Positions 6,708 to 58,700 of a DNA stretch of 64,000 nucleotides are shown one piece after another. Position numbers and translations under genes: made by a program. Position 1 is the stretch's first letter; each line of letters starts with the position of its first letter. The notes beneath the pieces are model-generated. The model worked only from the letters and a program-made list of their open reading frames with translations. It had not been told where the DNA came from and did no database searches. Source of the DNA: Octopus sinensis (Eukaryota); assembly GCF_006345805.1 (NCBI RefSeq), contig NC_043001.1, positions 25,048,001 to 25,112,000 of the forward strand, written 5' to 3'.

Positions 6708-6825
6708 TGAAGACGATCATTTTGTACAGCGATATAAAAATCATGCAAATTCATGGTTGAACAGAATTAATAAAATTAATTAGATTAAATTAAATTAATT
6801 ATATATCACTGTACTCTTCAGTGCA
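6708..6825 (-). ncRNA. Type I hammerhead ribozyme-like motif, degenerate
   Basis: Minus strand reads tgca-CTGAAGA-GTACAGTGATATA...TATATCGCTGTAC-AAAA-TGATCG-TC-ttca. Stem II pairs over 13 bp; GAAA to AAAA and ACGATCGT to ATGATCGT both fit CpG decay. Confidence 0.7.
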
Positions 6826-7524
6826 AGAAGTATAGACAATATCTTTACAAAGGATACGACAAAGGAAAATGTAGAATACGATCTAGGAGATTCATATTTA
6901 TCCTTATGAGAAAGGAAGATATGTGTGAGTCCAGGTAAGTATTAACTAAAACTAAAGGCTATAATGGTTATTTGAAAATAGAAGTGAGAGAGGTTTTAGA
7001 GATGTTCCCTTTAGAGATGAGTAAGGAGATAAAGTATAATGCCAAACAAGTCGTGTAGGGAAAAGACTGTATTGAAATGTCCAGTGGAAAGGCATAGCTA
7101 TATTTGAATTGAGATTTGACCTGACAGTGAGAAACAATGCTTAGTGTCGTGTATATTCAAAAAAACAAAAGACATACATATATATATAAATACAGATATA
7201 TATATATATATATATAAATACAGATATATATATATAAATACAGATATATAGATATATATATATATAAAAATAGTAATGCAATACGAGAGTATTGCTTTCC
7301 AGTAAAGAATAGCCCGTGAGGGAAAATTATACATAGAAGTAAATATATAGCACAACGAAGTACCGATATTTACTGGAAAATAGCGAACGTAATAAATACG
7401 ACGCTAATGTATAGCTTCACTGCGTATGTACTAGCAAAAATGCGTGTGTGCAACAAACTTGAAAAAAATTGTCTTACCTCCAGGGAGAACATCTGAAAGA
7501 TGAAATACCTAGATAGGGATAATG

Positions 7525-7590
7525 TGGGACCGGTTTCAGATTTTTCAAGATATGTCTGCACACATATACTTGATTTATCTTCATCAACCA
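7525..7590 (-). ncRNA. Type I hammerhead ribozyme-like motif (C3U variant)
   Basis: Minus strand reads TGG-TTGATGA-AGATaaaTCAAGtATATGT gtgcag ACATATCTTGAaaaATCT-GAAACCGGTC-CCA. Stems I and II and palindromic stem III (ACCGGT) all pair. Confidence 0.75.
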
Positions 7591-7793
7591 ACATATACCC
7601 GACAACATTTCAGATGTTGCCACATCAATGCCAATACACTCGACTGAAGCGCCAAAATGCTGACAGAACGTAAATATCGGTACTTCTTTGTGCTATATAT
7701 TTACTTCTATATATATATATATATTTGCTGTGTTTTTTTTTTTGTCTGTGTTTTCTTGTTTGGATTAACTATATATATATATATACGTATGTG

Positions 7794-7837
<44 letters not shown>

Positions 7838-8022
7838 TTAGGAGAAGTAATGGTGTCAATAAGACCGAAAGGTGTCAGGTAATGCTGAGTAAGAGCGATG
7901 GATAGAACATAGTTAAGCTCCAGGTTCAGTGATTATGAGAATAAGGAGGCCAATGTAGGTCATATAACAGCATGTGTGTATTTAAAAATTTTTTTTCAGA
8001 ATGCGATAAAAAACCGAGGCTA

Positions 8023-8062
8023 TGAAGATTTTAGAACATTTATAAATGTTCTAAAATCCTCA
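8023..8062. repeat. 40-bp spacerless palindrome
   Basis: TGAAGATTTTAGAACATTTA|TAAATGTTCTAAAATCCTCA, one mismatch. Confidence 0.9.
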
Positions 8063-8404
8063 CATATGGAGACACGTATCCACACATACAGATGGATAGG
8101 TACATAGGTTATATGTAAATATGCGAATGGAGACTGAAACACATGACCATATATACACACACACTTTACTCCACACAAGGACACATATGGAGACATGTGT
8201 CCACACATATAGAGGTGCACATCCATACATGGTACATAGTGGCAAAACACACACACACACACACCCAAACATGCACACTCAAGGAGACAGAGGTGCATAC
8301 ATATACAAACACATGCTCACACATACACATACATAAAAATACACAAACACAGACATGCAAGCACATGAATATGCAGAATACATACATACAGATGCACACA
8401 CATA

Positions 8405-9140
8405 CATATATACATATGCATACTCACACATATATACATATGCATACTCACACATGTATACATATGCATACTCACACATGTATACATATGCATACTCACA
8501 CATGTATACATATGCATACTCACACATATATACATATGCATACTCACACATGTATACATATGCATACTCACACATGTATACATATGCATACTCACACATG
8601 ATACATATGCATACTCACACATGTATACATATGCATACTCACACATGTATACATATGCATACTCACACATGTATACATATGCATACTCACACATGTATAC
8701 ATATGCATACTCACACATGTATACATATGCATACTCACACATGTATACATATGGATACTCACACATGTATACATATGCATACTCACACATATATACATAT
8801 GCATACTCACACATGTATACATATGCATACTCACACATGTATACATATGCATACTCACACATGTATACATATGCATACTCACACATGTATACATATGCAT
8901 ACTCACACATGTATACATATGCATACTCACACATATATACATATGCATACTCACACATATATACATATGCATACTCACACATGTATACATATGCATACTC
9001 ACACATGTATACATATGCATACTCACACATGTATACATATGCATACTCACACATGTATACATATGCATACTCACACATGTATACATATGCATACTCACAC
9101 ATATATACATATGCATACTCACACATGTATACATATGCAT
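8405..9140. repeat. 24-bp minisatellite, about 30 copies (ACATATGCATACTCACACATGTAT)
   Basis: Direct tandem units; explains the YTYAYSHM and HMHTHTCI repeat ORFs; a 1-nt deletion near 8600 shifts the frames. Confidence 0.97.
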
Positions 9141-9364
9141 ACATACATACATGCCTACATGCATAGGCACACACACAAACTGACCCACACACATGCGCAC
9201 AAACAAACAAAAAGGAACACAGTGTAAATAACGGACAGAGTCAAAGGTTGCAAGATGCAATGAAAATTTTAGGACAATAAAAATAAGAAATAAGTGGAAA
9301 TTTTACCGGTGAATGTGTTATATTATAAGGCATAAAAAGAAAATGACTCTCTCCAGACACAACA

Positions 9365-9400
<36 letters not shown>

Positions 9401-9777
9401 ACTTATATAACACAAAGCAAGTTAGAAGTTATGGGTGCAACCCACTAAGGGATAGTATTTATCCAATATACTGTTGGTAAAGTAAACAAATTCTTAATAC
9501 ATAAATGTTTTTAATTGCAATGCAATTAACTTATTTATTGTATTAAGTGAGTGAAGGTAAAGAAATATTTTACTGTTAATTTATAATACAAATAAGAAAA
9601 TGGAGAAACAATTTAGTTTGTTCATCAACTTTCGGATATTAGAATGTTGAATTATTTATTCATTTAACAAAATGAGAACCTTAATAGCATACATATGTAT
9701 CTTATAGTTCAATACATATAAGATAAGAATACAAATTATAAAAGTCTTAATATAAATTATTGAATTCATTAAAATCA

Positions 9778-9913
9778 CTCCTTACAGCTGTTTCAGCCTA
9801 TGGTTAAAAGCAATTATTTAAATTTTTATTGCCTATAGTTGTCAATTATATTGAGGTTGTAGGCATTTAAAAATAGGGTACTTATATATATAACCATAGG
9901 CCTCGTCAGGGAT
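9778..9913 (-). ncRNA. Type I hammerhead ribozyme, left arm
   Basis: Minus strand reads CTGACGA-GGCCTATGGTTA...TAACCATAGGCT-GAAA-CAGCTG-TA-agga. Intact core, 12-bp stem II, palindromic stem III ACAGCTGT. Confidence 0.85.
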
Positions 9914-10553
9914 TATAAAGAACTTTAAAAATATTAGTACATGAAACAGGATACACGTATAATTTAATATACATAAAAATATGAACAACTATCCATATAG
10001 ACTTATACATATACATATACATACATAAGCAGAGTGTATATTTATGAGTGCTCATTATAACTAATTGTATTTATTTTAACGGGTAGATTATAATAAGTAC
10101 TATTTATATCTGGAGAAAGTATACCCGATTTTATGAAGACATGATGCATTGTGTTCCTTAAAATCGTTAATGATGGGTAGATCAGTTTTTGTGGAATTAT
10201 TCTACGATACTATATTAATTTGATGGATAAAAATACAAATATAAGTATAATTTTAACTTCAACTTTGACGAAATGAAAAAAAGTACTCATATCGATATTA
10301 CGCATGAACTTGTATGTATTAAGAAGAACTATATACTGAAAAACAAAGTCTAACTGTATGTTTTTTATATATTTATATACATGTATATTTGTATACATAT
10401 ATATATGTATATATATATATATATATTTATTTGTGTGGATTGTTTATCTTGTATCATAATATTTGATATATTAGAATCTATTATACTATGTATTGTCAAG
10501 TGAAGATTACTATAAATATAATAATATTGTTATTATTGATAATAATAATAATA

Positions 10554-10602
<49 letters not shown>

Positions 10603-10877
10603 TGATTATTGTTTATGTGGTCATGAGCATAGACGTGTTTATATGTTCCAGTATATGTATATATATATGTATATGACGAATGGTATATTTACTTGGACCT
10701 GTTGTTCAGTTGTGTTTGTTTATATATTTTTACACATGTAAAAGTATATACACTCTGCTTATGTATGTATATATATGTATATGTATAAGTCTATATGGAT
10801 AGTTGTTCATATTTTTATATATATTAAATTATACTTGTATCCTGTTTCATGTACTAATATTTTTAAAGTTCTTTATA

Positions 10878-11012
10878 ATCTCTGACGAGGTCTATGGTTA
10901 TATATATAAGTGCCCTATTTTTAAATGTCCACAACCTCAATATAATTGACAACTATAGGCAATAAAAATAAAAATAACTGCTTTTAACTATAGGCTGAAA
11001 CAGCTGTAAGGA
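10878..11012 (+). ncRNA. Type I hammerhead ribozyme, right arm
   Basis: tct-CTGACGA (10882)-GGTCTATGGTTA...TAACTATAGGCT-GAAA-CAGCTG-TA-agg; predicted cleavage after GTA at 11008. Confidence 0.85.
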
Positions 11013-11206
11013 GTGATTTTAATGATTTTAATAATTTATATTATGATTTTTATAATTCGTATTCTTATCTTATATGAATTGAATTATAAGATACATATGT
11101 ATGCTATTAAGGTTCTCATTTTGTTATATGAATAAAAAATTCAACATTCTAATGTCTGAAAGTTGATGAACAAACTAAATTGTTTCTCCATTTTCCTTTT
11201 TGTATC

Positions 11207-11241
<35 letters not shown>

Positions 11242-11518
11242 TATAATAATAATTATTATTATTTGAAGGAATATTATTCCTAACTTACAGGGAAAAAATT
11301 CAATTTAGAAATACTAAATCAAATTTCGCAAAATATAATATATATATATACATATAACACTTAGAAAAAAACCACCTTTTATCAATTCAAAATGAACAAT
11401 TAAATTACACCATCTAGAAAATTACATATAATAGAAATATTAAAATTAAAATAACAATAATATACCGAAGATTAAGTAAATTGCAAAAAAATAATAAAAA
11501 CCTATATATTTGGTAGAA

Positions 11519-11626
11519 TAACGACACATGTTTCATGGCTATATTTAAGAAATGATTATAGTAAAAAGATTAATTAATAGTAGTAGTAAAATCACTTCGA
11601 TATAAATACAGCCACTCATCAGGTTA
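11519..11626 (-). ncRNA. Type I hammerhead ribozyme with intact core, inside an AT-rich Penelope-like remnant (~11245-12180)
   Basis: Minus strand reads TAAC-CTGATGA-GTGGCTGTATTTA...TAAATATAGCCAT-GAAA-CATGTG-TC-GTTA. Perfect 4-bp stem I and 13-bp stem II. Confidence 0.88.
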
Positions 11627-11668
11627 AAAATAAACTAGAATAAAATAATTAATTAATAAATATACTTT

Positions 11669-11708
<40 letters not shown>

Positions 11709-12180
11709 TAAGATACTAAATATACATTAAGTGAAAACTAAAACCAATATTTAAATTATTCAATACTTTAAAATTAATTAATATACACAATGCTAGTACA
11801 AGCCATTAATATTGTAATCAAAATAAGAAATGGTTCAAATATAGACAAACTCATCAAATAAGCTAACTATATAATTAATATATATGTGTAGTATCTATAG
11901 ATTTAATTTATCACTATAATATAATTGACTAAATATCAATTAATATAATAGCTAATTATCTTAAATTTAATACTACTTAATAAATTTACCACCTAATAAT
12001 TAAATAATATATTGTCTAACAAAACTAATTCTCAAATTAAATTAAATGTAATACGTTAGATCCTTTTATTAAAAAAAACTAAATAAATAGATATAATAAT
12101 TAATATCTATCTTAACTTATAACTATCAATATATATAAAAATGATATAATGGCGAAAATTATTTACTAATGGAAAGTAAA

Positions 12181-14853
12181 GGGTGTGGGTATACTTCTCA
12201 CCGAAAAATGGGTAGATAAGGTAATTGAGGTAGTCAGAGTATGCGACAGAATACTTAAGATTAGATTAGTGCTTCACCATGGGTTAGCAACCATAATATT
12301 GTCCTATGCCCCTCAGCCGGGGCTACCCGATGGACAGAAAGACCGATTCTATGACACCCTACTGCAGACTACCTTGTTGACGAATGACAGGGATCTTCTC
12401 TTTGTGGCTGGTGACTTCAATGGACATGTTGGACAACATACAGGGGACTTCCATGTCGTACATGGAGGCTATAGTTATGGTTCCCACAATGAGGAGGGAA
12501 CCAGGCTGCTGGAGTTCTGTGATGCAAATGATCTTATGGTTTGCAATACTAACTTCAGAAAACCTACCAGTCACCTAGTCACCTACCGATTGGGCTGACA
12601 TACTAGCCAAATTGCCTACATCCTTGCCAGAAAAAAATGAAGGATGGCTGCTTCTAAATGCCAAAACCTTTCCAAGCGAAGAATGTACCCCACAATACAG
12701 ACTGGTAGTTAGTAACTTTAGGATCAGGACAAAGTGGATGCCCAGAAGAAGACCAACATGGAGAAGAAGTGTCTGGAAGCTTAAAGATTCTGCGAATGGA
12801 CAAAGATTTAGAGACATATTACTCAAAGCCTTTGATGAAATAGAAGGGGATATAGCTTCACATGGGGTAGAAGACAACTGGAGGTTTCTACTGGACAACC
12901 TGCTAAGAGCCACTGACCAGATCTGTGGATGGTGAAAAGTCCCCTCTCAACCCAAAATAACGTGGTGGTGGAACAATGTTGTAGACAGGGCTATTAGAGA
13001 AAAGAGACAGGCTTGGAAGGACGGTGGTAGCAAGGAATTGTATCAGACTGCCAGAAGAGAAGCTAGGAGACAGGTTTATTTAGTCAGAGGGGAAGCAGAT
13101 AAGAAAAAATTTGCCAATGTTCTATGCCATGAGAATCAAAGACTTGAGGTATTTCATGTTGCAAGACAGTGTGTGAGAGAGAATCATGATGTTGTAGGAG
13201 AGAAATGTGCCCACATGGATGATGGTTCTCTTGCACTAAATGGGGCTGCAAAGAGAGAGGTTTGGAGACGCCACTATGAAAGGCTGCTGAATAAAGAAAA
13301 TGAATGGGAGAAAGAGAGTCTGCCGATTGTCGACCCAACAGAGGGACCAGCTATCCAAGTTGGCAGTACCTTGGTAAATAAAGCAAAAGTATGAAAAGAG
13401 GGAAAGCCCCAGGCTCATCAGGAATTACTGCAGAGATGCTCAAAATATCTGGCAGTGTCGGCTATAGCCTGGTCACCCATATAGTTAACCAGGTGATAAC
13501 CAAAGGAGTCATACCCAATGACTGGTGTAGCAGCATAATAGTCAACTGCTACAAAGGTAAAGGTGATGCTCTAGATACAAATAATTACAGAGGTATCAAG
13601 CTGTTGGATCAGGTAATCACAGAGAGGGTCATAGCCCAACTAATTAGGGAGATAGTCAGTTTAGATGAGATGCAGTTTGGTTTCGTGCCAGGGAAAAACA
13701 CCACTGATGCTATATTTCTGGTAAGACAGCTGCAGAAGAAATACCTAGCTAAAGATAAGCCCCTGTACCTGGCTTTCATTGACATGGAGAAAGCCTTTGA
13801 TAGGGTCCCCCGATCCCTTATCTGGTGGTCAATGAGGAAACTAGGGATAGATGAATGGTTAGTGAGAGCCGTGCAAGCCATGTACAGGGACGCTGTCAGT
13901 AAGGTGAAGGTTGGCAACGAGTACAGTGAAGAATTCAGGGTAGTGGTAGGGGTCCACCAAGGTTCAGTCCTCAGCCCCCTCCTATTTATCATAGTCCTCC
14001 AGGCAATAACGGAGGAATTCAAGACAGGATGCCCCTGGGAGCTCCTCTATGCTGATGACCTTGCTCTAATTGCTGAGTCACTATCAGAACTAGAGGTGAA
14101 GTTTCAAGTATGGAAACAAGGATGAGAATCGAAGGGCCTTTGAGTCAACCTAGCTAAAACCAAAGTCTTAATAAGTAGGAAGGCAGGCAACCCACAAATC
14201 CCTTCAGGTAGATAGCCCTGCTCGATCTGTACAAAAGGCGTAGGTAGAAACTCTATAAGATGTACCCAGTGTAAGCTATGGACACATAAGAGGTGCAGCA
14301 ATGTCAAAGGAAGGCTAACTAGGAAGATAGTTTTTGTATGTGGCAGATGCTCAGGAGCAATAAACACTGAAAATATGCAGAGACCATCTTCTGCCACATT
14401 CCAGGGAGAAAAACTAGAAATAGTTGATAGCTTCCGTTACCTAGGTGACCAAGTGAGTAGCGGGGGCAGGTGTGCTGAAAGAGTAACTGCTAGAGTAAGA
14501 ATAGCCTGGGCAAAGTTCAGAAAGCTCTTTCTTCTGCTGGTGACAAAAGGCCTCTCGCTCAGAGTAAAAGGTAGACTGTATGACGCATGTGTACAAACAG
14601 CCATGCTACATGGCAGTGAAACATGGGCTGTGACTGCTGAGGACATGTGTAAGCTCGCAAGGAATGAAGCTAGCATGCTCCAAAGGATGTGTAATGTCAG
14701 TGTGCATACTCGACAGAGTGTTAGTGCCTTGAGAGAAAGGTTGGACCTAAGAAGCATCAGATGTGGTGTGCAAGAGAGACGACTGCGCTGGTATGGTCAT
14801 GTGGCAAGAATGGATGTGGATAGCTGTGGGAAAAAGTGCCACACCCTAGCAGT
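12181..14853 (+). pseudogene. RTE-clade LINE remnant (APE endonuclease, RT, PHD-type finger), truncated at both ends
   Basis: GVGILL, YAPQ, GDFNGHVG, NYRGIKLL, QFGF, DMEKAFDRV, GVHQGSVLSPLLF, YADD, FRYLG, LHGSETW, RLRWYGHVAR; several stops and frameshifts. Confidence 0.95.
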
Positions 14854-14911
14854 TGATCATGCTTGAGTGGTGCTTTTTACGTGCCACCAGCACGGAAGCC
14901 AGTCTGATGCC

Positions 14912-15082: not shown

Positions 15083-15093
15083 CATGGTCGACT

Positions 15094-27387: not shown

Positions 27388-27633
27388 TTCCTTCTCGAGC
27401 CATGCCAGGCTCATAAGGACCGGTTTCCTGGTTTCAGTGGCGTAGAAATTCCCCACCTGGACAGGACATCGGTCCATCGCAGGATTGCTCATTTTTGCCA
27501 GCTGAGTGGACTGGAGCAACGTGAAATGAAGTGCTTTGCTCAAGAACACAACGCATCGCCTGGTCCAGGAATTGAAACCACAACCTTACGATCATGAGTT
27601 CAACACCCTAAACACTAAGCTACATGCCTCCAC
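27388..27633 (-). mobile_element. SINE family D (head D2, tail ending CTCGAGAAGGAACA)
   Basis: Head as at 24868, tail as at 53748. Confidence 0.85.
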
Positions 27634-36192: not shown

Positions 36193-36437
36193 TTAAAGGT
36201 ACAATCCACCCAGTAGGTTTCTATACAGTTACTATCTACCCAGTTTCAATCTCATGCTATGAAACCAACCTAAAGCTAAAGAAAATGACATTTGTCCAAG
36301 AATAACATGCTTATAATCTGAAGATTTTTCATCCATTAAAATCAAACAACGAGAAAAATAGAAAAAGAGAAGAGAGAGATTTCTTATAACTATGACTTAG
36401 TCATACTAAAATTCTACTGTTATGAACCCAATTTTGT

Positions 36438-36820
36438 GAAGTATATTTGCCATCTAAATGTGGCTAATCACTAAGGGTGGATGTTACTGTAGCTTGTAGC
36501 CTCAGGAGAACAACTTCTCCAGCTGGCTATTGACACACTTTCTGTGCCCTATCGGTATTTGAAAGGGAAGCAATCCTTCCCATCGTCGACCTCACGTGAT
36601 ACGCACAGACCCGGGTCTCTGGGTATTTACCCATCATCAGCGCACGACAATCACCGGTCTTCGATGCAAAGGGGTCCCAATGCAAATACATATATCTTTT
36701 TTCCAGTGACTTTTCGTCGCTGATCTTGAAAAAGTGTAAACAAGCAATAATAAATCTCTGAACAAGGTATAAACAGTAACTGCAGTTACTGTTTATACCT
36801 CATTCAGAGATTTATTATTG
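36438..36820 (-). mobile_element. ~380-bp non-coding Penelope-like insertion with hammerhead, terminal 76-bp palindrome and 15-bp TSD
   Basis: TSD TGAACCCAATTTTGT at 36423-36437 and 36819-36833; palindrome 36745-36820. Confidence 0.8.
36603..36645 (-). ncRNA. Compact type I hammerhead ribozyme-like motif
   Basis: Minus strand reads GTGCG-CTGATGA-TGGGTA aa TACCCA-GAGA-CCCGGG-TC-TGTGC. One core substitution (GAAA to GAGA); palindromic stem III. Confidence 0.78.
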
Positions 36821-37084
36821 AACCCAATTTTGTTATTTTGGAAAAAAATACTAACTACTTTTTGTCATGAGCTTGTGTTTAAAGTGGAAGGTGAAAGAGA
36901 ATACAGTTGCATTCAAACCTTTTTCACATGGAAATTGAAACTGAATTACTGACTCAGCTCATAAGTAGATAACTTCTAATGTAAATCCTTTTGTAAATAA
37001 AAATTTCCTAGGTTAGTATACAGTCACAGATGTGTAAGAGAGGGATATAACTGATTGAATTTACCCTAGAATGTGACTTGTCTT

Positions 37085-44508: not shown

Positions 44509-47500
44509 TTAAATCCTTAAAAATGTTTTAGCCCGAAGGCCGCGGCCATGCTGGGGCACCACCGCTGAATGAGCTACACTAGTTTGTGAATCCACCTCTG
44601 ATACGTGGCACTTGATCAACAAGGGAGTTCGATGCTGCTGCCCGCATCCGTGTCTCCTGTCGTGAGGTAGGTTCATCTGGGACTCCCAACAAGAAGAGAT
44701 CCAGTTTAGTTTTAAAGAAACCCACATCCACACCATGTAAGTCTCTCAGGCATTTAGGGAGGATGTTAAAGAGCTGTGGTCCTCTGAAACCCAAGCTGTT
44801 GCAGTATCTGGACCTGTATTTTGATGGTGATGTTGGAATCCTTGGCACCACGCAGCGGCGCCCCGTTCTGCGGTTGGAGTAACTTTGAATGCCAAAGTTT
44901 GGGACAAGACCCTCCAGGATTTTCCAGATGTATATCACTGCATATCTCTCCCGCCTCCGCTCCAGGGAGAAGAGGTTTAATACCTTCAGTCTTTCCCAGT
45001 AGCTGACATTTTGCATTGAGACGATTTTCTTTGTGTAGCTTCTCTGAGTTGCTTCGAGTTCTGCTGTTTGTTTTATATTGTGTGGTGACCAAAGTTGGGA
45101 GCAGTAGTCCAAGCGGCTGAGGACGAATGTTTTCCATAGGACCATCAGTGTCTCCTTCTCTCTTGTTCTGAAAGTTTGGAGAATCCATCCAGCTAGCCGT
45201 CTGCATTTTATCACCAGATTAGCAATATGCATTTGGAAAGATGCATCATTGCTCATGTCAATGACCAGGTCACGCACTGATTTTGACTCAGGGATTGCAA
45301 TTCTTCCTGGGCCAGTGTATCCAGTCTTCACGTCATTTACCTTTGTGTGCCAGTAGCGCAGGGCCTGGAACTTACCTGCATTAAACTGCATGTTGTTGTC
45401 CTCAGCCCACCTGTATATTGTGTCCAGCTCATGTTGCAGATGCGCAATATTTTCAGGGTTTTGTACTGCGTGGGAGACTTTTGTGTCATCTGCATAGCTA
45501 GCAAGGGTGGTCATCGTAGCAACTGAAGGCATGTCTGAAAGGGCCACTATGAACATCAGTGGCCCCAAGACAGTGCCCTGTGGGACACCGCTTGTTATTT
45601 GCGTTTCCTTGGAGGTGGCTCCATTGCTCACAACTGCCTGTTTTCTGTCTTTTAGGAAGTTGTGCAGCCACTCTCCAAGTTTCCCGCCTATGCTGAGACC
45701 ACGCAGTTTGTGACAGATCATACCATGGTCGACTTTATCAAAGGCTTTTGCAAAGTCGAGATATATTACATCCACATTTGAGCCATTTAGTAGCTGTTTC
45801 AACACCCAGTCATAGTGTTGCAGGAGCTGTGTTAGGCAGCCTCTACCTGGTCGAAATCCATGCTGGGTGTCAGACAGTAAGTCATTTTCTTCAAGGAACA
45901 TGATTAGTTTCTTACGGACTATTCGTTCCATGACTTTGCTGATGTGTGAGGTCAGAGAGATAGGCCTATAATTTTTAGCATCTGCTCTGCTACCTCCCTT
46001 ATGGATAGGGCATATTACCCCCTCTTTCAGTTTGACTGGGAGCTTACCACTTGCAAGAAAGCTCTGAAAAAGAAGCTGTAGTGGTTTTGCAAGGGCTCGT
46101 TTGCACGATTTGAGAAGGATCGCTGGGAATCCATCAGGTCCAGCAGCTGAGTTTGTGTCAATCTCATCAATGGCTAGTGTGATACCATCATCTTCGATGT
46201 TGATGTACTCAATTTTTGTCTCTTTGGCCGCTGGTAAAGTGGCAAAGAATTCTTCTGGGTTGTTTACTTGCCTGTGTCCTAGAGGTGTAGTGAACACACT
46301 TTGGAACTGTTCGTTCAGTATTTCACTTATCCTCGTGGGATTTCCTGTGAGAGAGCCATCTTTTTGGAAGAGAGGTCCTATTCTCTGGTGCACTGTGGCT
46401 GTCTCTTTGGCAAACTTAAAGAAAGCTTTAGGGTTTGATTTTATATTTTCTATTACCAAGCTTCTTTATCTGCTCTCTCCTTTTCATGGGACTGATGTAG
46501 ACTTTTCTCAGTTTCCATTAGCATTCTTTCGAGCCGAGACTTCTCACCACTTTTGGTGTGCTTGCTCAGGCGGTTTGCAATCCTTGTCCGTTGTCTCATA
46601 AGAATCCTCCTTTCTCTAGGGATCCTGTTTTTGTTCTTGTGTGTGCTGGCCCTGCACATTGGGACATATTTGTCACATATGGCTTGTATTATGGACATGA
46701 AGTGTTTGTGTTTCATGTTTATGTCCGGTGTGGAGAGACATTCATGCCAATCCTGTTTGAGGATCTCTTTCTCAATCGACTTCCAGTTGGCTTTATGAAA
46801 GTTTAAGTTGGAGAGATGGTGGGTGCTTCGTATAGGCTGTGTTCTGCGGGGGCTTTTGTTCCATACATAGACAGCTCTATTATGTTGTGATCCGAGATCA
46901 TTGTCGGCATCACATTAACATTATGGATAATATCCATATTGTTTGTGAAGCAGAGATCCAGTATATTATCTGCCCTTGCTGGTTGCAGAACTATTTGCTC
47001 CATGAAAGAGGCATTTGTGAGATGGAGCAGGGACTCCACCTGTGCCTGCTGATGGTGTGTCATCCCTGGGAGCATCTGCCCCCCAGGCCATTCCACATTG
47101 GGGAGGTTAAAGTCACCCATGAAGAATACACTGTTGTGCTGTTCAAGGTTGGTGAGGACTTCTCCTATTTTTGTTAGGCAGTCTTCAAACATGCCTGAGT
47201 GTTTTGGGGCATCTGGTGGGCGATATGTAGTGCATATGACGATATTCAGTTGTCTTATGTGTACAATTTGAGTTTCACATACTGAGTTTGAATATGACAG
47301 CAGGACCTGGGGCGTGAGGTCATCTCGGATGTACATTGCAACTCCACCATGGCTCCTCCCTTTTCTATCTGTGCGTATGACTGCATATTGCGGCATGTGT
47401 ATTTCTGCATCACCTATATCAGGTTCAAGATGCGTTTCTGTGAGTGCCATGCATATAGCTTGATTGCATGTCACAAGGTCTCTCAGGAATGAAATTTTCT

Positions 47501-47540
47501 TTTTACAGTTTCCGCGCAGCAGCCCTCCTACATTCAGTAA
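44509..47540 (-). mobile_element. CR1-group LINE with near-complete ORF2 (APE + RT) and intact 3' UTR; two frameshifts
   Basis: ORFs 46803-47567, 46453-46716 and 44579-46459 (626 aa, RT motifs to stop); 3' UTR hairpin and TTTAAGGATTTAAG tail. Confidence 0.96.
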
Positions 47541-48955
47541 GCTGTTCAAAATTTGAGTAGAGCCCACAGATTTTTGTAAACCTTAAGTAATTGATTAGTC
47601 CAATGTGTAGCCCTGGCCTAACTAGATAGAGTGGGGCACATAATGAAAGCAAGGGAGCTCACAAAAATTTTCCAAAGGTTCAACATCAAACAAGTCAGAG
47701 TAACGTATGTTACTCTCTTTACTTGTTTCAGTCATTTGACTGTGGCCATGCTGGAGCACCACCTTTAGTCGAGCAGATCAACCCCAGGACTTCTTCTTTG
47801 TAAGTCTAGTACTTTTTCTATTGGTTTCTTTGCCGAACCGCTAAGTTATGGGGGACATAAACACACCAGCATCGGTTGTCAAGCGATGTTGGGGGGACAA
47901 ACACAAACACACAAACATACACACACATACATACATATATATATATATACATATATACAATGGGCTTCTTTCAGTTTCCATCTACCAAATCCACTCACAA
48001 AGCTTTGGTCAGCTCGAGGCTATAGTAGAAGACACTTGCCCAAGATGCCACATAGTGGGACTGAACCCAGAACCATGTGGTTGGTAAGCAAGCTACTTAC
48101 CACACAGCCACTTCTAGGCCTGAGCAAATATAAAACAAAAAAGTTTGTCTTAGTTGTTCAAAATTTGAGTGGTAACCACAAAGTTTTTAAAACCCAAGGT
48201 AATTGCTTGATTTGTCCAATGTGCAGACCCGACCCAACTTTATAGAGTAGGGCACATAATGAAAGCAAGGGAGCTCACAAAAGTTTTCCAAAGGTTCGAC
48301 ATCAAACAAGTCATAGTAACATATGTTACAAGCAAATATAAAACAAAAAACTTTGTCTAAGATGTTCAAAATTTGCCCACAGATTTTTTAAAACCCCAGG
48401 CAATTGCTTGATTTGTCCAATGGGCAGCCCTGGCCTGACTTGATAGAGTGGGACGCATAATGAAAGCAAGGTAGCTCACAAAAATTTTCTAAAGGTTCAG
48501 CATCAAACGAGTCAGAGTAAAATACATTGTGAACAAATATAAAACAAAAACTTTATCTAAGTTGTTCAAAATTTGAGTGATACATGTAGATTTTTTTAAA
48601 ACCCAAGGTAATTGCTTGATTTGCCTGGCCTGACTATATAGAGTGGGGAACATAATGAAAGCAAGGGAGCTCACAAAAATTTTCCAAAGGTTCAACATCA
48701 AACACGTCAAGGTAACATATATTGTGAACAAATATAAAACAAAAAAGTTTGTGTAAGTTATTCAAACTTTGAGTGGGACTCACAGATTTTTTAAGACCCT
48801 TGGCAATTGCTTGATTTATCCAATGGACAGCCCTGGCCTAACTAGATAAAGTGGGCACATAATGAAAGCAAGGTAGCTCACAAAAATTTTCCAAAGGTTC
48901 AACATCAAACAAGTCAGAGTAACATATGTTGTGAACAAATATAAAACAAAAGTTT
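47541..48955. repeat. ~200-bp tandem repeat, about 5 diverged units, with a SINE A inserted (47711-48120, minus)
   Basis: Recurring cataatgaaagcaagg.agctcacaaaaattttccaaaggttcaacatcaaac near 47639, 48255, 48457, 48651 and 48858. Confidence 0.93.
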
Positions 48956-49549: not shown

Positions 49550-49701
49550 ATTAGAGAGAGAGGGGGAGGGAGAGAGGGGGGGAAAGATGGCAGGGGGCAA
49601 AAACGTCAGCAAAAGACAAGAAATGTTGGTAACCTGATAGGTAACGTCTTAACATGCAGCAACTAACATTAGCTATGTCATCAATAAAACAATAGCTATG
49701 C

Positions 49702-49737
<36 letters not shown>

Positions 49738-49936
49738 GGTAGTGGTGGTGGTGGTGGTGGTAGTGGTGGTAGTGGTGGTGGTGGTGGTGGTGGTGGTGGT
49801 GGTGGTGGTGGTGGTGGTGGTGGTGGTGGTGGTGGTAGTAGTAGTGGTGGTGGTGGTAGTAGTAGTAGTATTAGTAGTAGTGGTGGTGGTGGTGGTGGTG
49901 GTAGTAGTAGTGGTGGTGGTGGTGGTGGTGGTGGTG

Positions 49937-49978
<42 letters not shown>

Positions 49979-50004
49979 ATAGTAGTAGTAGTAGTAGTAG
50001 TAGC

Positions 50005-50038
<34 letters not shown>

Positions 50039-50058
50039 AGTAGTAGTAGTAGTAGTAA

Positions 50059-50095
<37 letters not shown>

Positions 50096-50182
50096 AGCAG
50101 TAGTAGTAGTAGTAGTAGTAGTAGTGATTGCAGTGGTGGTGGTGGAGTAAATAATAATAATAATAATAATAATAACAGTAAT
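49702..50182. repeat. Compound (GTA)n/(GTG)n/(AAT)n trinucleotide microsatellite
   Basis: Read directly from sequence. Confidence 0.97.
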
Positions 50183-50339
50183 AAGGCTTGTTTTTAGAAA
50201 TAGTTATGTAGTTATGGTAAAGAGGTGATGATGGTGACAGTATGGGATAGGAGGTGGGAATCTGCAGGAGTGTGTTTCTTGTTTGTTTGTTTGTTTGTTT
50301 GCTTGTTTTTGTTTTGTTTTTGCTTACGGTGGTGGCAGT

Positions 50340-50775: not shown

Positions 50776-50800
50776 GTGTATAGATGCAGGAGTGGCTTTA

Positions 50801-51614: not shown

Positions 51615-51666
<52 letters not shown>

Positions 51667-51917: not shown

Positions 51918-51978
51918 AATACCAGAACCAAAACACAGTTTTCCAAATTAGTCTACTCCTTTAGTAACACCATAACTA

Positions 51979-52378
51979 AGGCGGCAAGCTGGCAGAAACG
52001 TTAGCATGCTGGGCGAAATGCGTAGCCGTATTTCGTCTGCCATTACGTTCTGAGTTCAAATTCTGCCAAGGTCAACTTTGCCTTTCATCCTTTCGGGGTC
52101 TATTAAATAAGTACCAGTTATGCACTGGGGTCGATATAATCGACTTAATCTGTTTGTCTGTCCTTGTTTGTCCTCTCTGTGTTTAGCCCCTTGTGGGTAG
52201 TAAAGAAATAGATATTTCATCTGACTTTACATTCTGAGTTCAAATTCTGCCACGGTCAACTTTGCCCTTCATCCTTTCGGAGTCGATAAATGAAGTACCA
52301 GTTGCGTACTGGGGTCAAGCTAATTGTTTGGCCCCCTTCCCCAAAAATTTCAGGCCTTCTGCTTAGAGTAGAAAAGAA
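51979..52378 (+). mobile_element. SINE family C partial dimer, second unit with the alternative tail
   Basis: Junction aaagaaatag|atatttcatc near 52211; imperfect TSD aacac..taactaag. Confidence 0.88.
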
Positions 52379-53747
52379 CACTGTAACTAAGAAGTATACT
52401 ATACAGATCATTATGTCCAAAATTAAAGAAAGGAAAACCAACAGTATTTTTTCACAATATAAGCTTACATAAAATCTCTTTTCAACTTCAGATATTTCAA
52501 AATTATGAAAAAAAAAAAATATGTACAAATCCTGAATCTGCAAATTTAGCCCCAGGGTAGGCAAAATTTATCCCAATTTAGGAATTTCTGATGCAGAGTG
52601 TCTGTGACTTACATGGATTAACCCATTTCTTAGCATTTTTCTTTGTTTCAATTAATTTTGAAAAATAAGAAAGAATTTAATAAAATAACTCAGTCATTAT
52701 TAAAATGGTGTTTGGAACATAAATTAAAATGGAATTTTAATGAATGGTTTAAATTTGATTTACTTTAAAACAGGAAATTTTTGTCATAGAACCAGAAGCA
52801 ATCCTAGGTGGGTTGGTACCAAAAGGGTGAAAGTGTTTTCTAGCCCTGAAGAAAAAGACTTGTTTTGAGGCTTGCAGACATTGCAATGTTAATGATGGTT
52901 GAGATCATCATGAGGAATCATCAGAGATTTGTAACAAATTAAAGGAATTATATTGTGGGTTTGGTGCAAAACTCTGTTCTAAGCATGTGTAGTGAGTATA
53001 TCTTATCTGTTGACACCTGCTACGTTAACATACTTTTATTGAATGAGATTTCAAGACCACTCCATGGAAGCAATGTAAATCTGGCATGAGGTATTTAAGT
53101 GGCTACTGTTTGGTGGGGGGGGGTAGAGGAGGAAGGGTAGTTTCCATAAACCTCTTGGGGGGCATCTCTGAGACTAGTGAGTAAAAAAGCAGAAAAAATA
53201 CATAATTCATGAACAGCAAAATACACACGTGTCTCGGACATCAAGGGGAGGTAGGAAGTATCACAGAAATGGTAAATGGTTTATGGCACAACAGAAATCA
53301 CTTAAAGCTTGCTAAAATATTATTTGAGGTAGTTTTATATGATTGGAAATATAATTCCAAAGTGTTCATGGCGTCATAGTAAGGATTTGATCAAAGACTT
53401 AGCCATTAAAAAAAAGTAGAATATTTTCCAAACATAAATAAATTGGAAGCATACAAAAATAAGCATTATTTTTCATCTTACTGTTAGTTTTGTTGCATTT
53501 TTAAAAATAAAAATTAATATTATGGTTTATTATTGTTTATATTTTGGATTACATATTTATATGGGGACACCAAAATCTTTTAAATACTTATGAGTTCTAT
53601 GAAACCTGATCCAAACTGCTCGTGAATTATCATTAAACAAGAGGTCTAGCCTGAATTCTTACAACAAGGTGAAGTCTACTAAAGGCACCCAAGGACCAGT
53701 TATGATGTTAAACCAGTCAAAGGATAAATGTTTGTTGTTTTTATTTT

Positions 53748-54028
53748 GTTCCTTCTCGAGCCATACCCGGCTCATAAGGGCTGGTTTCCCGGTTTCTTGG
53801 CATATAGGTTCCCACCTGGATGGGACGCCGGTCCGTCGCAGGTGAGCTGCAAGATGCAGGAGGAAAGAGTGAGAGAAAGTTGTGGCAAAAGAGTCAGCAG
53901 AAGTTTCGCCATTAACTTCTGCTGGAGCCGAATGGAGCTTAGGTGTTTCGCTCATAAACACACACATCGCCCGGTCTGAGATTCGAACCCGCGATCCCTG
54001 CTCTAACCACTAGGCCATGTGCCTCCAC
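53748..54028 (-). mobile_element. SINE family D variant
   Basis: Minus head GGAGGCACATGGCCTAGTGGTTAGAGC...GGTTCGAATC; flanked by direct repeat caaaggataaa. Confidence 0.85.
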
Positions 54029-54239
54029 AAAGGATAAAGTCTAACACCTACAGATAAAGAGTAAAATGTGAGTGGTATCAGTCACCTAAGAGTGTGTATG
54101 GCTAGAAATAACAATAAATACATCATTAATGCTTGAACAAAGAGAATAGAAAAAACAGCCGAGTTATTAGTTTATCCGTCATTGTCGACAATGACCAAAG
54201 ACATCACATGGGAGAAGAAGACTGGAAGCTTGGTGTGTC

Positions 54240-55731
54240 CAGCTGTTCCTGAGCTGCACATATGAATGCTTCTCTCCCTATCTTCAGATCACTCCTCCTC
54301 ATCTATGATCACCAGTCCTCTGTATCTGTCTTGGTTTTCTCATCTCTTGCAAGCTGACCATACATTCTTTTTTCCTTCCATGCTTTTCCTTTTTTTTTTT
54401 TCTTAAATTTTTCTTTAGTTACACAATTTTCACTTTTGATGACACTGGCCTTCTTTGTGTGTTTCAACAGTGACTCCACAGCATTTTTTATTTACCACCC
54501 TAGTCTGTTTTCCTCTGCTTCGATACAGTCCTGGCAACTGATCAAAACCTCTCGCACCCTTACTTCTGGATAAGTACAGCCTATCGGTGTCACTCTTAGG
54601 GTGGAAGGCTCCATGAACTGTCAACATTTTTCTGGTCTTGGTATCCATTTTCTTCACTTCTGTCTTTTGCCACTTTATAATTAACACTCCATACCAAAAT
54701 GATGCTATCACCCACGTATAAACTGGTCGGATTTTTTTCCATCCAGTAAATTTTGACAACAACACCAACCTCAGTCTTCAGAAATACTCCATCTTCAGTT
54801 GCTCTTTCATTTCCATCTGAATTATCTCGTTGAATTCCAGAACACCAAGGTATTTGTATCCTTCCATTTCAATTTGTTTTATCAAGTCTCTGTTCGGTAA
54901 TTCTATCCCTGCTAGGGACTGTACCTTGCTTGTTTTTAGGTAGATTATTCCATACTTCTTGAGTCTAAATTCCCTTCTAATATTAGTACTAAAACAGTAA
55001 ACTGTGTTCACCAAGGAATTCACTCGTGTCTCATCTTTGCCAGACAGTTTCAAATCATCCATGAAGAGGAGGAGGTTGATTGTTTGAGATTTTCCATTTA
55101 GTTGGTACCCCAGGCTCATTTTCCTAAGTACCAAGGTCAGGGGTATCATGCAGAGAACAAAAAGCAATGGAGATAGGCTATCACCCTGGAAAATCCCTCT
55201 TCTGATACCCAGGGTGCCCAAGCTTTTTCTGTATGATGTCAGTTCAGTTTTCCATCCCACCATACTTCCCTTCAGGAAACTCATTACATTCCTCACAATT
55301 CCAAACAGATCTAAGAACTCGATGATCCATGAATGTGAAATTGTATCATAAGGTTTGCGATAGTCAATCCAGATTTGTTCTCTTTCATTTACAGCCTTGC
55401 ATTACCATTCTGTCTATCAATAGTTGATCTTCAGTACTTCTGCATCTTCTCTACAGCCTTTTTGTTCCATCAGTAATATATCGTTCTCATCAAGAAATTT
55501 ATACAGTTCTTCTGCAATTCCTCCTGACAGCAACCTACACATTAATGAGAGGCAGAAAACTGTCAGCAGCATTTCTCTTTGATGCATCCTTCAGGCACAA
55601 CACCGTTCATGCTTTTGTCAACCAGCCCAGGATTTCTTCTTTTCCATTGATCAATGCATTAAATTGCTCTGCAATCAATTATGGCAACTATTGAACTTTT
55701 TTATCCAAAATCCCTGTACACCATCACATCC
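54240..55731 (-). pseudogene. R4/Dong-type non-LTR retrotransposon RT remnant abutting (TAA)n
   Basis: GIFQGDSLSPLLF, LLFMDDLKL, YKYLG, HPKSDTDRLYLSR, WKEKRMYGQ and ICAAQEQ; (TTA)n at 55732-55767 fits the known TAA-repeat preference of Dong. Confidence 0.85.
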
Positions 55732-55767
<36 letters not shown>

Positions 55768-56067
55768 GCATCATTTTTCAATTCTGTTTCCATTTCTTGC
55801 CGAGTGTCTTCCTGACATTTAGGGCAGAGAAACATACTGTATACATTGGTAGGCCATTAAAACAAACACACCAGAATTATTATTATTATTATTATTTAAA
55901 ACAATTTGATATGATTCCATGTGACAAAGTTTCACAGGTGTCTAACTAAACCCCATTTCTTTTGGGCTTCTATATGTATATTGCAGTTATATATATATAT
56001 AACCAGTCGCCAAGATAGATAGTTAGCCACTACATGCTTTTTTTCTCTCCTTGTTTTTTCTGTGTCC

Positions 56068-56103
56068 CTTTCTGTAGAAGAGCATAGGCTCGAAATGTAA
56101 AAG
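56068..56103 (+). ncRNA. Minimal hammerhead-like motif (A6U variant) in a ~195-bp element between (TA)n tracts (56001-56195)
   Basis: CTTT-CTGTAGA-A-GAGC atag GCTC-GAAAT-GTA-AAAG. Perfect 4-bp stems I and II, almost no stem III. Confidence 0.5.
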
Positions 56104-56213
56104 ACTTTTTCTATTCCTGAGCATTATACTAATACATCTGTTTGTTTTGTACAACACCTGTCTTCGTCTTTTGTTTTTTTCGTAAACTCTCCCCATATAG
56201 ATATATATATATA

Positions 56214-56725
56214 TCACATAGTACTGGCCAGACCATCAGATGCTGTTAAACACTGGTGGTTACAATGTGTTTCCAATTCTGTCTCAATTATACCATTCTC
56301 TTTCATCTTGACCCAAATTGCTTCACCAAATCATCTTCCTATCATTGTGGAGGGCTTCCAAGTAGCCTTTTCCTATCTCTTGGATACCACTCAACCACTG
56401 CACAAGTTGTGACATGTTTGAACCAGCAGAACTAGTGCTTTTGGTACTCCGTGGTCACATCGTTTACTCTGCTCCATTCTCGAATTATCTCATTTTGTAT
56501 GTGCTCTCTTAGGGATATTCTTAACATGGATCTTTCCATGGCCCTTTGCATCATAGCCAATCCAGGTTTTATCCTCTTCGCAGTGACTTACGTCTCACTT
56601 GCATATAAAAGCACAGGTAGGATGGTATTAATGAAGAGTCTGGCACATATTGCATTGTATAGCTTTGTTTGGAGTAAATCCTTTATTGAGTTAATGCCTT
56701 CCATCTTGCCCTTATTCTTTTTGTG
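56214..56725 (-). mobile_element. RTE-clade LINE 3' fragment (third RTE family)
   Basis: ARLFINTILPVLLYASET and QRAMERSML.ISLREHI motifs; 3' UTR shared with the SINE at 17058. Confidence 0.8.
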
Positions 56726-56751
56726 AAAGAGAAGGATAAAGAGAATATATA

Positions 56752-57225
56752 TATCATCATCGTTTAACATCTGTTTTCCACGCTAGCATGGGTTGGACTG
56801 TTCGACCAGGGTCTGGGAAGCCAGGAGGCTGCACCAGGCTCCAGTCTGGCCTGGCAGTGTTTCTACAGCTGGATGCCCTTCCTAATGCCAACTACTCCGT
56901 GAGTGTAGTGGGTGCTTTTTACATGCCAGGCGAGGCTGGCAACAGCCACGATCGGTTGGAGCTTTTTATGTGCCACTGGCACGGAAGCCAGTCAAGGCAA
57001 CACTGGCATCGGCCACATTCGGATGGTGCTTTTTACGTGCCACCGGCACAGGGATCACAACTACAATTTCCATTGATTTTTTATGTTGTTGTATTTGACT
57101 CAATAGGTCTCCTCAAGCACAGGGTCAAAATGGTGTTTCTTTACTTGCTACCTGCACAGGAGTCAGTCCAGCGGCACTTGCAACTGCTAGGTGCCAGTCA
57201 TAGGATTGGTTCAATTTCAATTCCG
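56752..57225 (-). mobile_element. SINE family B
   Basis: Family B tail; explains spurious ORF 56788-57333. Confidence 0.88.
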
Positions 57226-57613
57226 AATATATTAGAAATTTACAAAATTAACCCAAATCAAGTATTGCCATTGATTATATTTCCTTCACTTCTCATTCTC
57301 CTTTTTCAAATTTCTGTCCTATTACCAGATTAAAAAATTATTAATTACAGTCCACTCCACTGGGTGGGTGGGTGGTTGGTATTAGGAAGGGCAACCAGCT
57401 GTAAAAATCTTGCTAAAACAGTTACATAAGTCTGGTGCATGCTTCTGCCTGGCCGGCTCCTGTCAAACCATCTCACCCATGCCAACATGGAAAGCAGACG
57501 TTAAATGATGGTGATGATGATATCACCATCTTCATCATCGTTTAATGTCCTCTTTCCATGTGGTTGGACAGTTTGACAAGAGCTGGTCAGGCAGGTGTCC
57601 GCGCAATGCTGTA

Positions 57614-57669
<56 letters not shown>

Positions 57670-57699
57670 TACAGCATATATATATATATATATATATAA

Positions 57700-58700
57700 G
57701 TAAATAAATGGAGTTGAATACAGGTGTTATTCAAATTCTTTTACTTTTGACATATGTTTCGAAGACAACATTGGTTTTATTCCAAAGGAATAAATGGTGT
57801 AAAATAATGTAATCTTCTCATCAGGAAAGAAAGAGAACCTATCTCAACAACAAGACATTATAACAATTTTGATGACTGCATAATTGATAAACAGAACGCT
57901 ATTAAGTATTTTAAAAAAAAAACGTTAGTAAATCTGACATCAAGGGCGGACCATAGGAAGAGAAGGGGTAAAGAAATAATAAGTAGAGAACAAATAAAGA
58001 GGGATACATTGGTTGAAAAATGTTCAAAGGCTTGGAAGTAGATTTCTCTATTGAAGTAAAGTGCAAGGTGAACTAAATGTTCAAACTATACAGACTGGTA
58101 TAAATCCTTTATATGAGCTAAAGGTGTGTTTATGTCAGTGCTTACATTTGTAAGATCGCTCTATAAGTGTGTTAACAAGGTGATTCTTAGAGAAGAGAAT
58201 ATGGAAGAGTTCAGAGTTGCAAATGTTACAAAATCCTTTGCCCTTGTCATAAGGGAAAGAGATGGACAGGATGAACCAATCTAACTTAAAATCTCGTTAT
58301 TGTTGTCTTTAAGATGCCAAACCAATTTACTTAGCCCTGTGCTATAACGTTTACTGCTATCCCTAAATGAAGAATAATGATTGGAAATTCTCTTAGATAA
58401 CTGGGAAGAGGACGCGCCAATGTAGAAGTAGACATCAGTACCACTAGAAATTTTACATTGGTATATAGAATTCTTAATCTTAGAATTATTAGACATAAAT
58501 TTAATTCTGTTGGGGTTGTCCTCAGAGAGCAAAACTATGTTGTTATTACTATTATTATTATTATATTATTATTATTATTATTACTGTTATTATGTGAAGG
58601 GCTGGTATTAACAAAATTAATGTTGAAACTCTCAGAAAATGAACTTTTATTTAGCAGACTGGTATTATGAGAAGATATAATTTGTGAAAGATTCTTTGTG
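57700..58700 (-). mobile_element. Penelope-like retroelement 3' remnant: linker, GIY-YIG endonuclease and pLTR, ending at (TA)n
   Basis: KNLSQIISSHN linker; SIYQCKISS...FYIGAS..LSKRISNHYSSF...STGLSKLVWHLKD; after a frameshift W.IL...Y..GKGFCNICNSE...CKH. Confidence 0.9.
57744..57829 (-). ncRNA. Type I hammerhead ribozyme in the Penelope pLTR
   Basis: Minus strand reads ctttc-CTGATGA-GAAGAttACATT...AATGTtgTCTTC-GAAA-CATATG-TC-aaaag. Intact core; palindromic stem III ACATATGT. Confidence 0.88.

Follow-up and report, generated by a model that had tools for sequence, protein, structure and literature searches.

Which kind of element gave rise to the eight hammerhead-ribozyme folds that an initial annotation had pointed out in 64,000 nucleotides of the Octopus sinensis genome (assembly GCF_006345805.1, contig NC_043001.1, positions 25,048,001 to 25,112,000 of the forward strand; this whole stretch is referred to here as the window)? 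Our analysis leads us to conclude, with a probability that we would put at about 0.85, that the eight folds lie in dispersed retrocopies of seven repeat families, five of which are 5'-truncated ends of Penelope-like elements (PLEs) and two of which are circularly permuted units likely copied by PLE enzymes from circular or uncut multimeric RNA. Families are named after the window positions of their folds (9778 and 10878 being one family), and individual genomic loci carry L numbers.

Eight hammerhead folds in the window

All eight type I hammerhead folds were found at the positions first reported for them (Table 1), and the tally of four intact cores (9778, 10878, 11519, and 57744) and four substituted ones agreed with ours. 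The stem III palindromes listed earlier were correct on re-reading, and across the seven families the stems pair with unrelated sequences. Core positions are given in what we take to be the hammerhead position numbering. The descriptor, chosen, like that for the minimal fold, once the sites were already known, allowed at most one core change and demanded four or more Watson-Crick pairs in stem II, partial pairing in stem I and a palindrome as stem III. With one core change permitted it returned exactly seven sites in the window and no others; in 200 block-wise dinucleotide shuffles, the check that the initial annotation had proposed, the mean was 0.63 and the maximum 4, and no shuffle reached seven. 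The four intact cores compare with 0.02 in the shuffles. The single minimal fold, that at 56068 (shuffle mean 0.07), was matched by 13 of the 200 shuffles and is not significant alone; in the random genome sample described below, minimal folds of this type are significant (9 vs. 0.22 in shuffles).

The families to which the folds belong were recovered by genome searches in which 40 candidates were scored and the 30 best loci kept per search, so that the resulting sets represent neither copy numbers nor a random sample. Intact textbook cores were present in 25 (57744), 21 (10878), 29 (11519), 18 (6708), 27 (7525), and 27 (36603) of the 30 loci. The core changes of three window copies are decay, as the majority in each family keeps the core at the substituted position: GAAA in 24/30 loci for 6708 and in 27/30 for 36603, and CUGAUGA in 27/30 for 7525. 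Unlike these three decayed cores, the A6U change of 56068 is family-wide. Stem III of 11519 reads ACATGTGT in the window copy and ACACGTGT in 20 of 30 loci, the stem III strands of 56068 are ATGT and ACGT, and in 36603 a C and an A flank stem II in 24/30 loci. We conclude that the eight hammerhead folds are real.

Folding energy was better than that of shuffles (z below -2) in only four of the eight window copies. For the 36603 copy at 36602-36646(-), the structure of lowest energy is an alternative one in which the stem III palindrome pairs with the 5' strand of stem II, and such pairing could prevent the monomer from being active. A candidate ninth ribozyme at 27418 was rejected, being a matching 10-mer without core and stems.

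Dispersed and truncated copies

First-look candidates numbered 453-2459 per ribozyme query and only 54, 189, 84, and 356 per upstream query, from which we deduce that the copies are 5'-truncated. Within a family the 3' ends fall on one to three preferred positions, which lie 45-370 nt beyond the cut site, and the 5' ends are ragged in all families except 56068. Five of the eight folds lie in one 5.5-kb nest produced by insertions into each other's TA runs. The window copies are single, decaying and probably inactive. No family has two copies on the same strand, those at 9778 and 10878 being on opposite strands, and the window ribozymes therefore have no partner for dimerization in cis.

Together the seven families occupy ~5.2 kb (8%) of the window, and 7525 and 36603 only 0.84 kb (1.3%), and so the earlier suggestion that such elements make up much of its anonymous DNA was overstated. 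What did stand from that interpretation is that PLE-type hammerheads lie beside (TA)n, are diverse and mostly come in copies without coding sequence.

Five families are ends of coding Penelope-like elements

Judged by their sequences, families 57744, 6708, 11519, 9778/10878, and 56068 are 5'-truncated 3' ends of endonuclease (EN)-bearing PLEs, four of them of Hydra type and one Neptune-like. A PLE profile was built from 40 of 66 homologues (those of at least 560 amino acids among P0003-P0063), and each family was walked upstream and then scanned. In all five a GIY-YIG endonuclease was encountered 0.36-2.4 kb before the cut site and on the same strand, the link being indirect for 10878, and in three the reverse transcriptase (RT) was also reached (11519 at L272, 6708 at L277, and 56068 at L341). 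In 57744 the GIY-YIG domain ends ~360 nt before the cut site, with a sense profile match in 9/30 loci including the window. For 6708, an EN match lies ~1.8-2.0 kb before the cut in 18/30 upstream loci, one locus (L279) holds the open reading frame (ORF) end and the ribozyme within one stretch, and at L277 a hammerhead stands ~290 nt before the RT-bearing ORF. For 11519, L272 has a 432-residue RT frame and EN followed by a tail of ~2.4 kb, and in L272 and L271 both domains are continuous with the family tail; the last 120 bp of the window copy match the pre-ORF sequence of L272, which is a near-full copy. In L341-L344 the RT/EN of 56068 ends ~820 nt before the cut site. For 10878, one has to go ~1.7 kb upstream, across microsatellite-rich DNA, to reach the EN of L349; three different insertions (L282, L285, and the window) also have an inverted piece of this EN attached to the 10878 tail. 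The Pfam GIY-YIG matches fell below the cut-off (E 0.0087 and 0.0013), and a comparison of the PLE RT with solved structures gave no match.

The ribozyme of 11519 and 6708 is followed by the same sequence that precedes the ORF, forming a pseudo-long terminal repeat (pseudo-LTR), and it thus sits at the junction of a circularly permuted element. Abutting 5' inversions occur in four of the five PLE families. The T-rich tails of 11519 and 6708 could be read as containing an antisense ORF, but this was rejected, as stops common to the copies indicate that the tails are non-coding. Between the RT thumb and EN of the Hydra-type ORFs an expanding and often frame-breaking AAT (asparagine) repeat was noted at L272:1400-1900(-), L349:2500-2800(-), and window 58500-58600(-).

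Clade membership was called from motifs only. Of the Hydra N-terminal motifs, RWK and DKT are both present in 6708, 11519 has DKT together with KWK, and the region was not reached in 57744 and 10878. Both 6708 and 10878 have the CxCX5C linker, CxxC and CxH and lack CCHH; CxxC/CxH is present in 11519 and 57744, with a longer linker in the former and none seen in the latter. The L341-L345 translations of 56068 have a linker of the CX2-5CxxC type and two cysteines between GIY and YIG. The motif match to Hydra is accordingly full for 6708, for the EN part in 10878 and partial for 11519 and 57744, and 56068 is called Neptune-like.

The initial annotation had regarded 57744 as the only copy with a coding PLE remnant at its side; such a remnant is indeed present there, but an endonuclease remnant at 10049-10185 also separates the 9778 and 10878 copies. 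Its description of the elements as non-autonomous fits two of the seven families (7525 and 36603) and fails for the other five, whose longer copies encode GIY-YIG.

Two retrozyme families

On the evidence of their repeat structure, 7525 and 36603 are retrozymes, i.e., short permuted units with one type I hammerhead and no RT or EN frame. The 7525 unit is ~427 nt, as seen from a direct-repeat period of 409-428 in 15/30 loci (two of which are one place), and sequence upstream of its ribozyme repeats its 3'-end sequence. The 36603 unit is ~357 nt, with a period of 337-357 in 5/30 loci. Folded as circles, the units scored below shuffles (z of -4.3 to -7.0 in seven 7525 copies and -2.0 to -5.1 in four 36603 copies).

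When copies were chosen by the sequence downstream of the cut alone (a set including both halves of some inverted pairs), 29/30 of 7525 and 23/30 of 36603 crossed the cut site, and 18/30 and 9/30, respectively, were longer than one unit. As copies picked downstream run across that site, the template must have spanned it. With nine loci that repeat a place removed, an abutting 5' inversion was present in 17/28 copies of 7525 and 8/29 of 36603, and in 11/30, 3/27, 7/29, 10/29, and 0/29 of the five PLE families (the last being 56068). A TA run stands at the 3' end of 24/28 and 12/29 retrozyme copies (background 5.5%) and of 17/30, 22/27, 25/29, 9/29, and 21/29 PLE copies. As a control, short and long interspersed element (SINE/LINE) fragments in the same loci had an abutting inverted copy in 2/237 cases.

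PLE ORFs beside retrozyme copies (L141, L140, L367, L403, and L394) were considered as parents and rejected, as they are separated from them by TA runs or other sequence. A specific pairing of 36603 with the Neptune family was likewise dismissed, since the counts (5/59 loci one way and 3/58 the other) are in line with general clustering. The 7525 circle has a long sense open frame, of 113-261 codons in seven copies [window 7264-7670(-), L140:1374-1841(-), and L149 among them; shuffle P 0-0.08], which is split between subfamilies by a 1-nt indel; it had no Pfam match and a best Atlas score of 0.79. Contigs of three runs guessed, not recorded, to be RNA covered the locus, and its neighbors partly, at low depth.

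An abundant family with a U6 core

Family 56068 has U6 in all 30 of its search loci, and the remaining core positions agree with the consensus. As a cross-check, 37 copies from loci not fetched by the 56068 search were aligned over 152 columns. U6 was found in 33/36 of these unselected copies. All four bases occur at N7, and no other of the 152 columns varies as much (1.96 bits against a median of 0.38); G is absent from H17, where A, U, and C are found, and C3, U4, G5, G8, A9 and the stems are kept at 84-100%. This is the pattern expected if variation is limited to that allowed by a working hammerhead core, and we predict from it that this abundant family is a ribozyme variant with an unusual core base; the copies share ancestry and the number of independent changes is therefore small. 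No A6U hammerhead turned up in the papers that we read or in a literature search aimed at it; PMC3088659 reports A6C as a natural variant of low activity, and the work of Lunse et al. on dimer-cleaving PLE hammerhead variants may already contain A6U.

Most 56068 copies, ~190 nt in length, begin 85-96 nt upstream of the cut site, and possibly represent a self-propagating short subfamily or a strong RT stop.

Abundance in the genome

We sampled sixty 10-kb stretches at round coordinates on 26 contigs (600 kb), with 40 shuffles, and extrapolated to the 2.72-Gb genome. The sample held eight intact long-stem folds (0.18 in shuffles) and nine minimal folds (0.22). About 17 hammerhead folds per 600 kb would correspond to the order of 75,000 per genome, and the ten matches to 56068 in the sample to ~45,000 copies, both by extrapolation. 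The window is four- to five-fold richer than the sample in the intact class. None of the eight sampled long-stem folds has the stems of a window family, and two of the eight are one family. No match to 7525 or 36603 was found in the 600 kb at E≤1e-8; looser settings gave two diverged 36603 matches. Seven further long-stem families with other 8-nt palindromes were noted (L430, L436, L438, L455, L457, L458, and L468), as were A6-bearing minimal motifs (L415, L442, L447, and L457).

Layout and surroundings in the window

Coordinates of the folds and element copies are collected in Table 1.

Table 1. Hammerhead folds and copies of ribozyme-bearing elements in the window.
Feature	Position	Strand	Remarks
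Hammerhead 6708	6708..6825	-	core start 6821, H17 6712; G12A; stem II arm 91 nt; family stem III ACGATCGT
Hammerhead 7525	7525..7594	-	core start 7587, H17 7528; C3U; stem III ACCGGT
Hammerhead 9778	9778..9914	-	core start 9909, H17 9783; intact; stem II arm 108 nt; stem III ACAGCTGT
Hammerhead 10878	10878..11012	+	core start 10882, H17 11008; intact core
Hammerhead 11519	11519..11626	-	core start 11622, H17 11523; intact; stem II arm 81 nt
Hammerhead 36603	36602..36646	-	core start 36640, H17 36608; A14G; stem III ACCCGGGT
Hammerhead 56068, minimal	56068..56103	+	core start 56072, H17 56099; A6U; extra A after A9; 4-nt stem III
Hammerhead 57744	57744..57829	-	core start 57824, H17 57749; intact; stem III ACATATGT
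Family 6708 copy	6662..7164	-	5'-truncated 3' end of Hydra-type PLE; non-coding tail and pseudo-LTR
Family 7525 copy	7264..7670	-	407 nt of 427/428-nt permuted unit without PLE frame; in TA run at 5' end of 6708 copy
7525 inverted piece	7670..7715	+	joined to 5' end of 7525 unit; PLE-type 5' inversion
Family 9778/10878, inverted partner	9389..10045	-	3' end
GIY-YIG C-terminus remnant	10049..10185	-	137 bp; CxH motif and stop; 90% identity to coding copy in L349
Family 9778/10878, second copy	10186..11212	+	5'-truncated 3' end of Hydra-type PLE
Family 11519 copy	11238..12179	-	5'-truncated 3' end of Hydra-type PLE; tail to tail with 10878 copy across TA run
Family 36603 copy	36435..36784	-	about one ~357-nt permuted unit without PLE frame
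36603 inverted piece	36781..36822	+	joined to 5' end of 36603 unit
Family 56068 copy	56002..56199	+	last ~200 bp of Neptune-like PLE
Family 57744 copy	57691..58585	-	5'-truncated PLE; broken GIY-YIG 58113-58493; 3' tail

LINE fragments, SINE-like repeats and microsatellites are intermixed across the window, and we take other repeats in it to be RTE-like, CR1/L2-like, and R4-like. Among named proteins, the closest matches came from Octopus species (73% identity). Broken non-LTR retrotransposons with RT (Pfam RVT_1) lie at 4139-6504(+), 44579-47582(-), 12170-14866(+), and 54430-55401(-), two of them with an AP-type endonuclease. A tandem array with a 24-bp unit at 8300-9240 is open in several frames, and mixed triplet repeats span ~500 bp at 49688-50203. 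A near-perfect (TG)n(TA)n(CA)n hairpin at 57605-57682, at the 3' end of the 57744 copy, is the source of the top false Rfam microRNA matches. A PLE RT and linker fragment of another family [L280:4877-5921(+)] lies ~5 kb to the right of the window.

A proposed route of copying and its alternatives

How might such copies arise? The source element would carry its hammerhead in a pseudo-LTR behind the coding tail and, in tandem, before the start of the next ORF, an order observed for 11519 and 6708. The computed energies of stem III are -7.0 to -14.9 kcal/mol as a self-duplex (-1.7 for the 4-mer) and +2.4 to +6.0 as a hairpin. The palindromic stem III is therefore predicted to form only between two copies, and a two-copy transcript would cut out one unit. 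Such dimer cleavage, for which we draw on PMC4209133 and PMC7229834, would free a unit, which would then circularize by ligation. A (TA)n run nicked by the PLE endonuclease would offer the 3' end that primes RT at an internal UA-rich site where the observed ends lie, 45-370 nt past the cut. Synthesis would run back through the cut site and usually stop early; the copies often show an inverted piece joined at their 5' end.

Several observations weigh against the interpretation of the eight folds as PLE ends and PLE-copied units, or against the route just outlined. The route is drawn from copy structure and predicted duplexes, and we infer cleavage, the circle and the transcript end. Few 5' ends lie within 5 nt of the cut site (1/30 in 7525 and 0/30 in 36603) and they form no pile-up there, so the genome itself records no cutting. 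Compensatory stem changes were absent within every family (30 loci each), the copies being too close and their decay post-insertional. The upstream walk did not reach RT in 57744 and 10878, and the ORF-to-ribozyme link of 10878 passes through a microsatellite-rich kilobase. Family 56068 has no abutting inversions among 29 copies, and its 5' ends cluster near -90. Multi-unit arrays of 7525 were seen at one place only (L141/L142, with 2.3 units in L142), and 60 loci of 36603 held none of at least two units. The inversion control is not fully like for like, as it used fragment queries, not full element ends. A comparison of the retrozymes with the five PLE tails revealed nothing in common beyond microsatellites, and 2.0 Mb of loci held no diverged retrozyme parent.

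In favor of chance matches of a short motif in AT-rich DNA, the loose descriptor yields ~5 matches per 600 kb of shuffled DNA, and a scan of the window with Rfam detected none of the eight (147 matches at E≤5, no hammerhead family, and only microsatellite-driven microRNA matches). We give this explanation virtually no chance, since no shuffle attained the window count, for three of the four copies with substitutions the family majority has the regular core, and every fold lies at the same place near a retroelement 3' end. It is also highly improbable that all seven families are non-autonomous ribozyme elements to which nearby coding pieces came as separate insertions. Most copies are short and non-coding, the PLE ORFs beside ribozyme copies in L141, L367, and L403 are separate insertions behind a TA run, and the ~190-nt class of 56068, with its clustered 5' ends, may have spread by itself; however, continuous multi-copy alignments lead from GIY-YIG into the ribozyme tail in 57744, 6708, 11519, and 56068, and for these four families that explanation is largely refuted.

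The two remaining alternatives are less easily set aside. The main rival for the retrozymes is that the 427- and 357-nt units were copied by PLE enzymes from a linear, uncut read-through transcript of a source locus just over one unit long, making the circle unnecessary and the ribozyme a passenger. The copies do cross the cut site without 5' ends there, PLE hammerheads are reported to cleave poorly in vitro, even as dimers (PMC4209133), eight of nine frog retrozyme dimers were uncleaved (bioRxiv 10.64898/2026.07.22.740005), and Naiad PLEs have spread without hammerheads (PMC8557442). Still, we consider a linear template unlikely: cores are intact in 27/30 loci of both families, the units fold well as circles, H17 of 7525 varies among allowed bases only (20 C, 9 A, and 1 U), and circles have been demonstrated for mussel units of 350-390 nt (PMC7229834). 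There is a substantial chance, though one short of even, that the ribozyme of 56068, with its A6U core, is dead and became fixed by descent, the family having no need for it. Changes at A6 lower activity (A6C cleaves at less than 0.1 per min; PMC3088659), a single substitution early in a founder would explain U6 everywhere, and related minimal motifs in the random sample keep A6. The variability of N7, the exclusion of G from H17 and the conservation of the other core positions and stems in the 37 copies speak against a dead core, with the caveat that independent changes were few. Only tentatively, as a proposal that we would expect to fail somewhat more readily than to hold, do we put forward the combined picture: a working U6 hammerhead in a Neptune-like family of tens of thousands of copies, missed by CUGANGA searches, together with retrozymes as circular-RNA passengers whose inversions and TA-primed ends record PLE enzymes priming inside the circle.

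Comparison with known systems

PLE hammerheads, and retrozymes as PLE derivatives, are already published, and the families described here are new families of known kinds. In passages of Cervera and de la Pena (2014, PMC4209133), PLE pseudo-LTRs carry type I hammerheads with short palindromic stem III, for which dimer cleavage and a circle are proposed. Our folds agree in the type I fold, the palindromic stem III and the extra base after A9 in the minimal form, as well as in most motifs being single, from truncated elements, with opposite-strand pairs 100-700 bp apart. They differ in having stem II arms of 57-108 nt in four families, where the main examples of that paper have helices of 7-8 bp, and in the family-wide U6 of 56068, where its supplement gives the consensus CUGANGAH.

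The Hydra clade of C-terminal EN+ PLEs, as described in parts of Craig et al. (2021, PMC8557442), shares RWK, DKT, the CxCX5C linker, CxxC and CxH around the C-terminal E and N and lack of CCHH with 6708, and part of these with the other Hydra-type families, as well as (TA)n targets, canonical hammerheads and inverted 5' copies with our elements. An octopus family, Hydra-1_Obim, is already in the supplement of that paper, and the four Hydra-type hammerheads found here differ from the Hydra-1_oBim motif. Asparagine-rich linkers and, in three families, tails of 1.7-2.4 kb take our elements beyond the "<3 kb" given for Hydra, and 11519 further differs in its KWK and longer linker. The C/A-flanked stem II of 36603 has precedent in the same supplement. 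Family 56068 resembles the Neptune clade in its CX4CxxC linker, two cysteines between GIY and YIG, C-terminal EN, minimal hammerhead and TA ends, and differs in its U6 core and in most copies being ~190 nt, the clade being called from motifs alone.

The animal non-LTR retrozymes (PMC7229834; Li, Clavereau and Pollet, 2026) have, like 7525 and 36603, one type I hammerhead, a head-to-tail arrangement, no coding role and self-paired circles, and are proposed to be non-autonomous PLE derivatives; their units are 170-400 nt, or up to 972 in bioRxiv 10.64898/2026.07.22.740005. In contrast to known retrozymes, nearly all copies here are dispersed, of 0.5-1.5 units, with PLE-type 5' inversions and TA ends, and no parent pseudo-LTR was found. 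The pipeline of the latter preprint requires two full units, and its survey covers no mollusc and no insertion junctions. Searches of the literature on octopus or cephalopod hammerheads, Penelope elements or retrozymes returned nothing on these families; part of the giant squid paper gives a count of 235 Rfam hammerheads.

Animal genomes with PLEs hold thousands of such motifs and the class itself is known, and neither Rfam, in this window, nor protein searches detect folds of this kind, which is of consequence for annotation. The U6 family would be a natural core variant whose variation has the pattern of a constrained hammerhead. The retrozyme junctions are genomic evidence for PLE enzymes moving retrozymes, a case that earlier was built on shared ribozymes, co-occurrence and pseudo-LTR similarity. 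Finally, copies that extend across the cut site, with ends at TA-like internal sites, lead to a testable model of the template, in which a circle may be distinguished from an uncut multimer.

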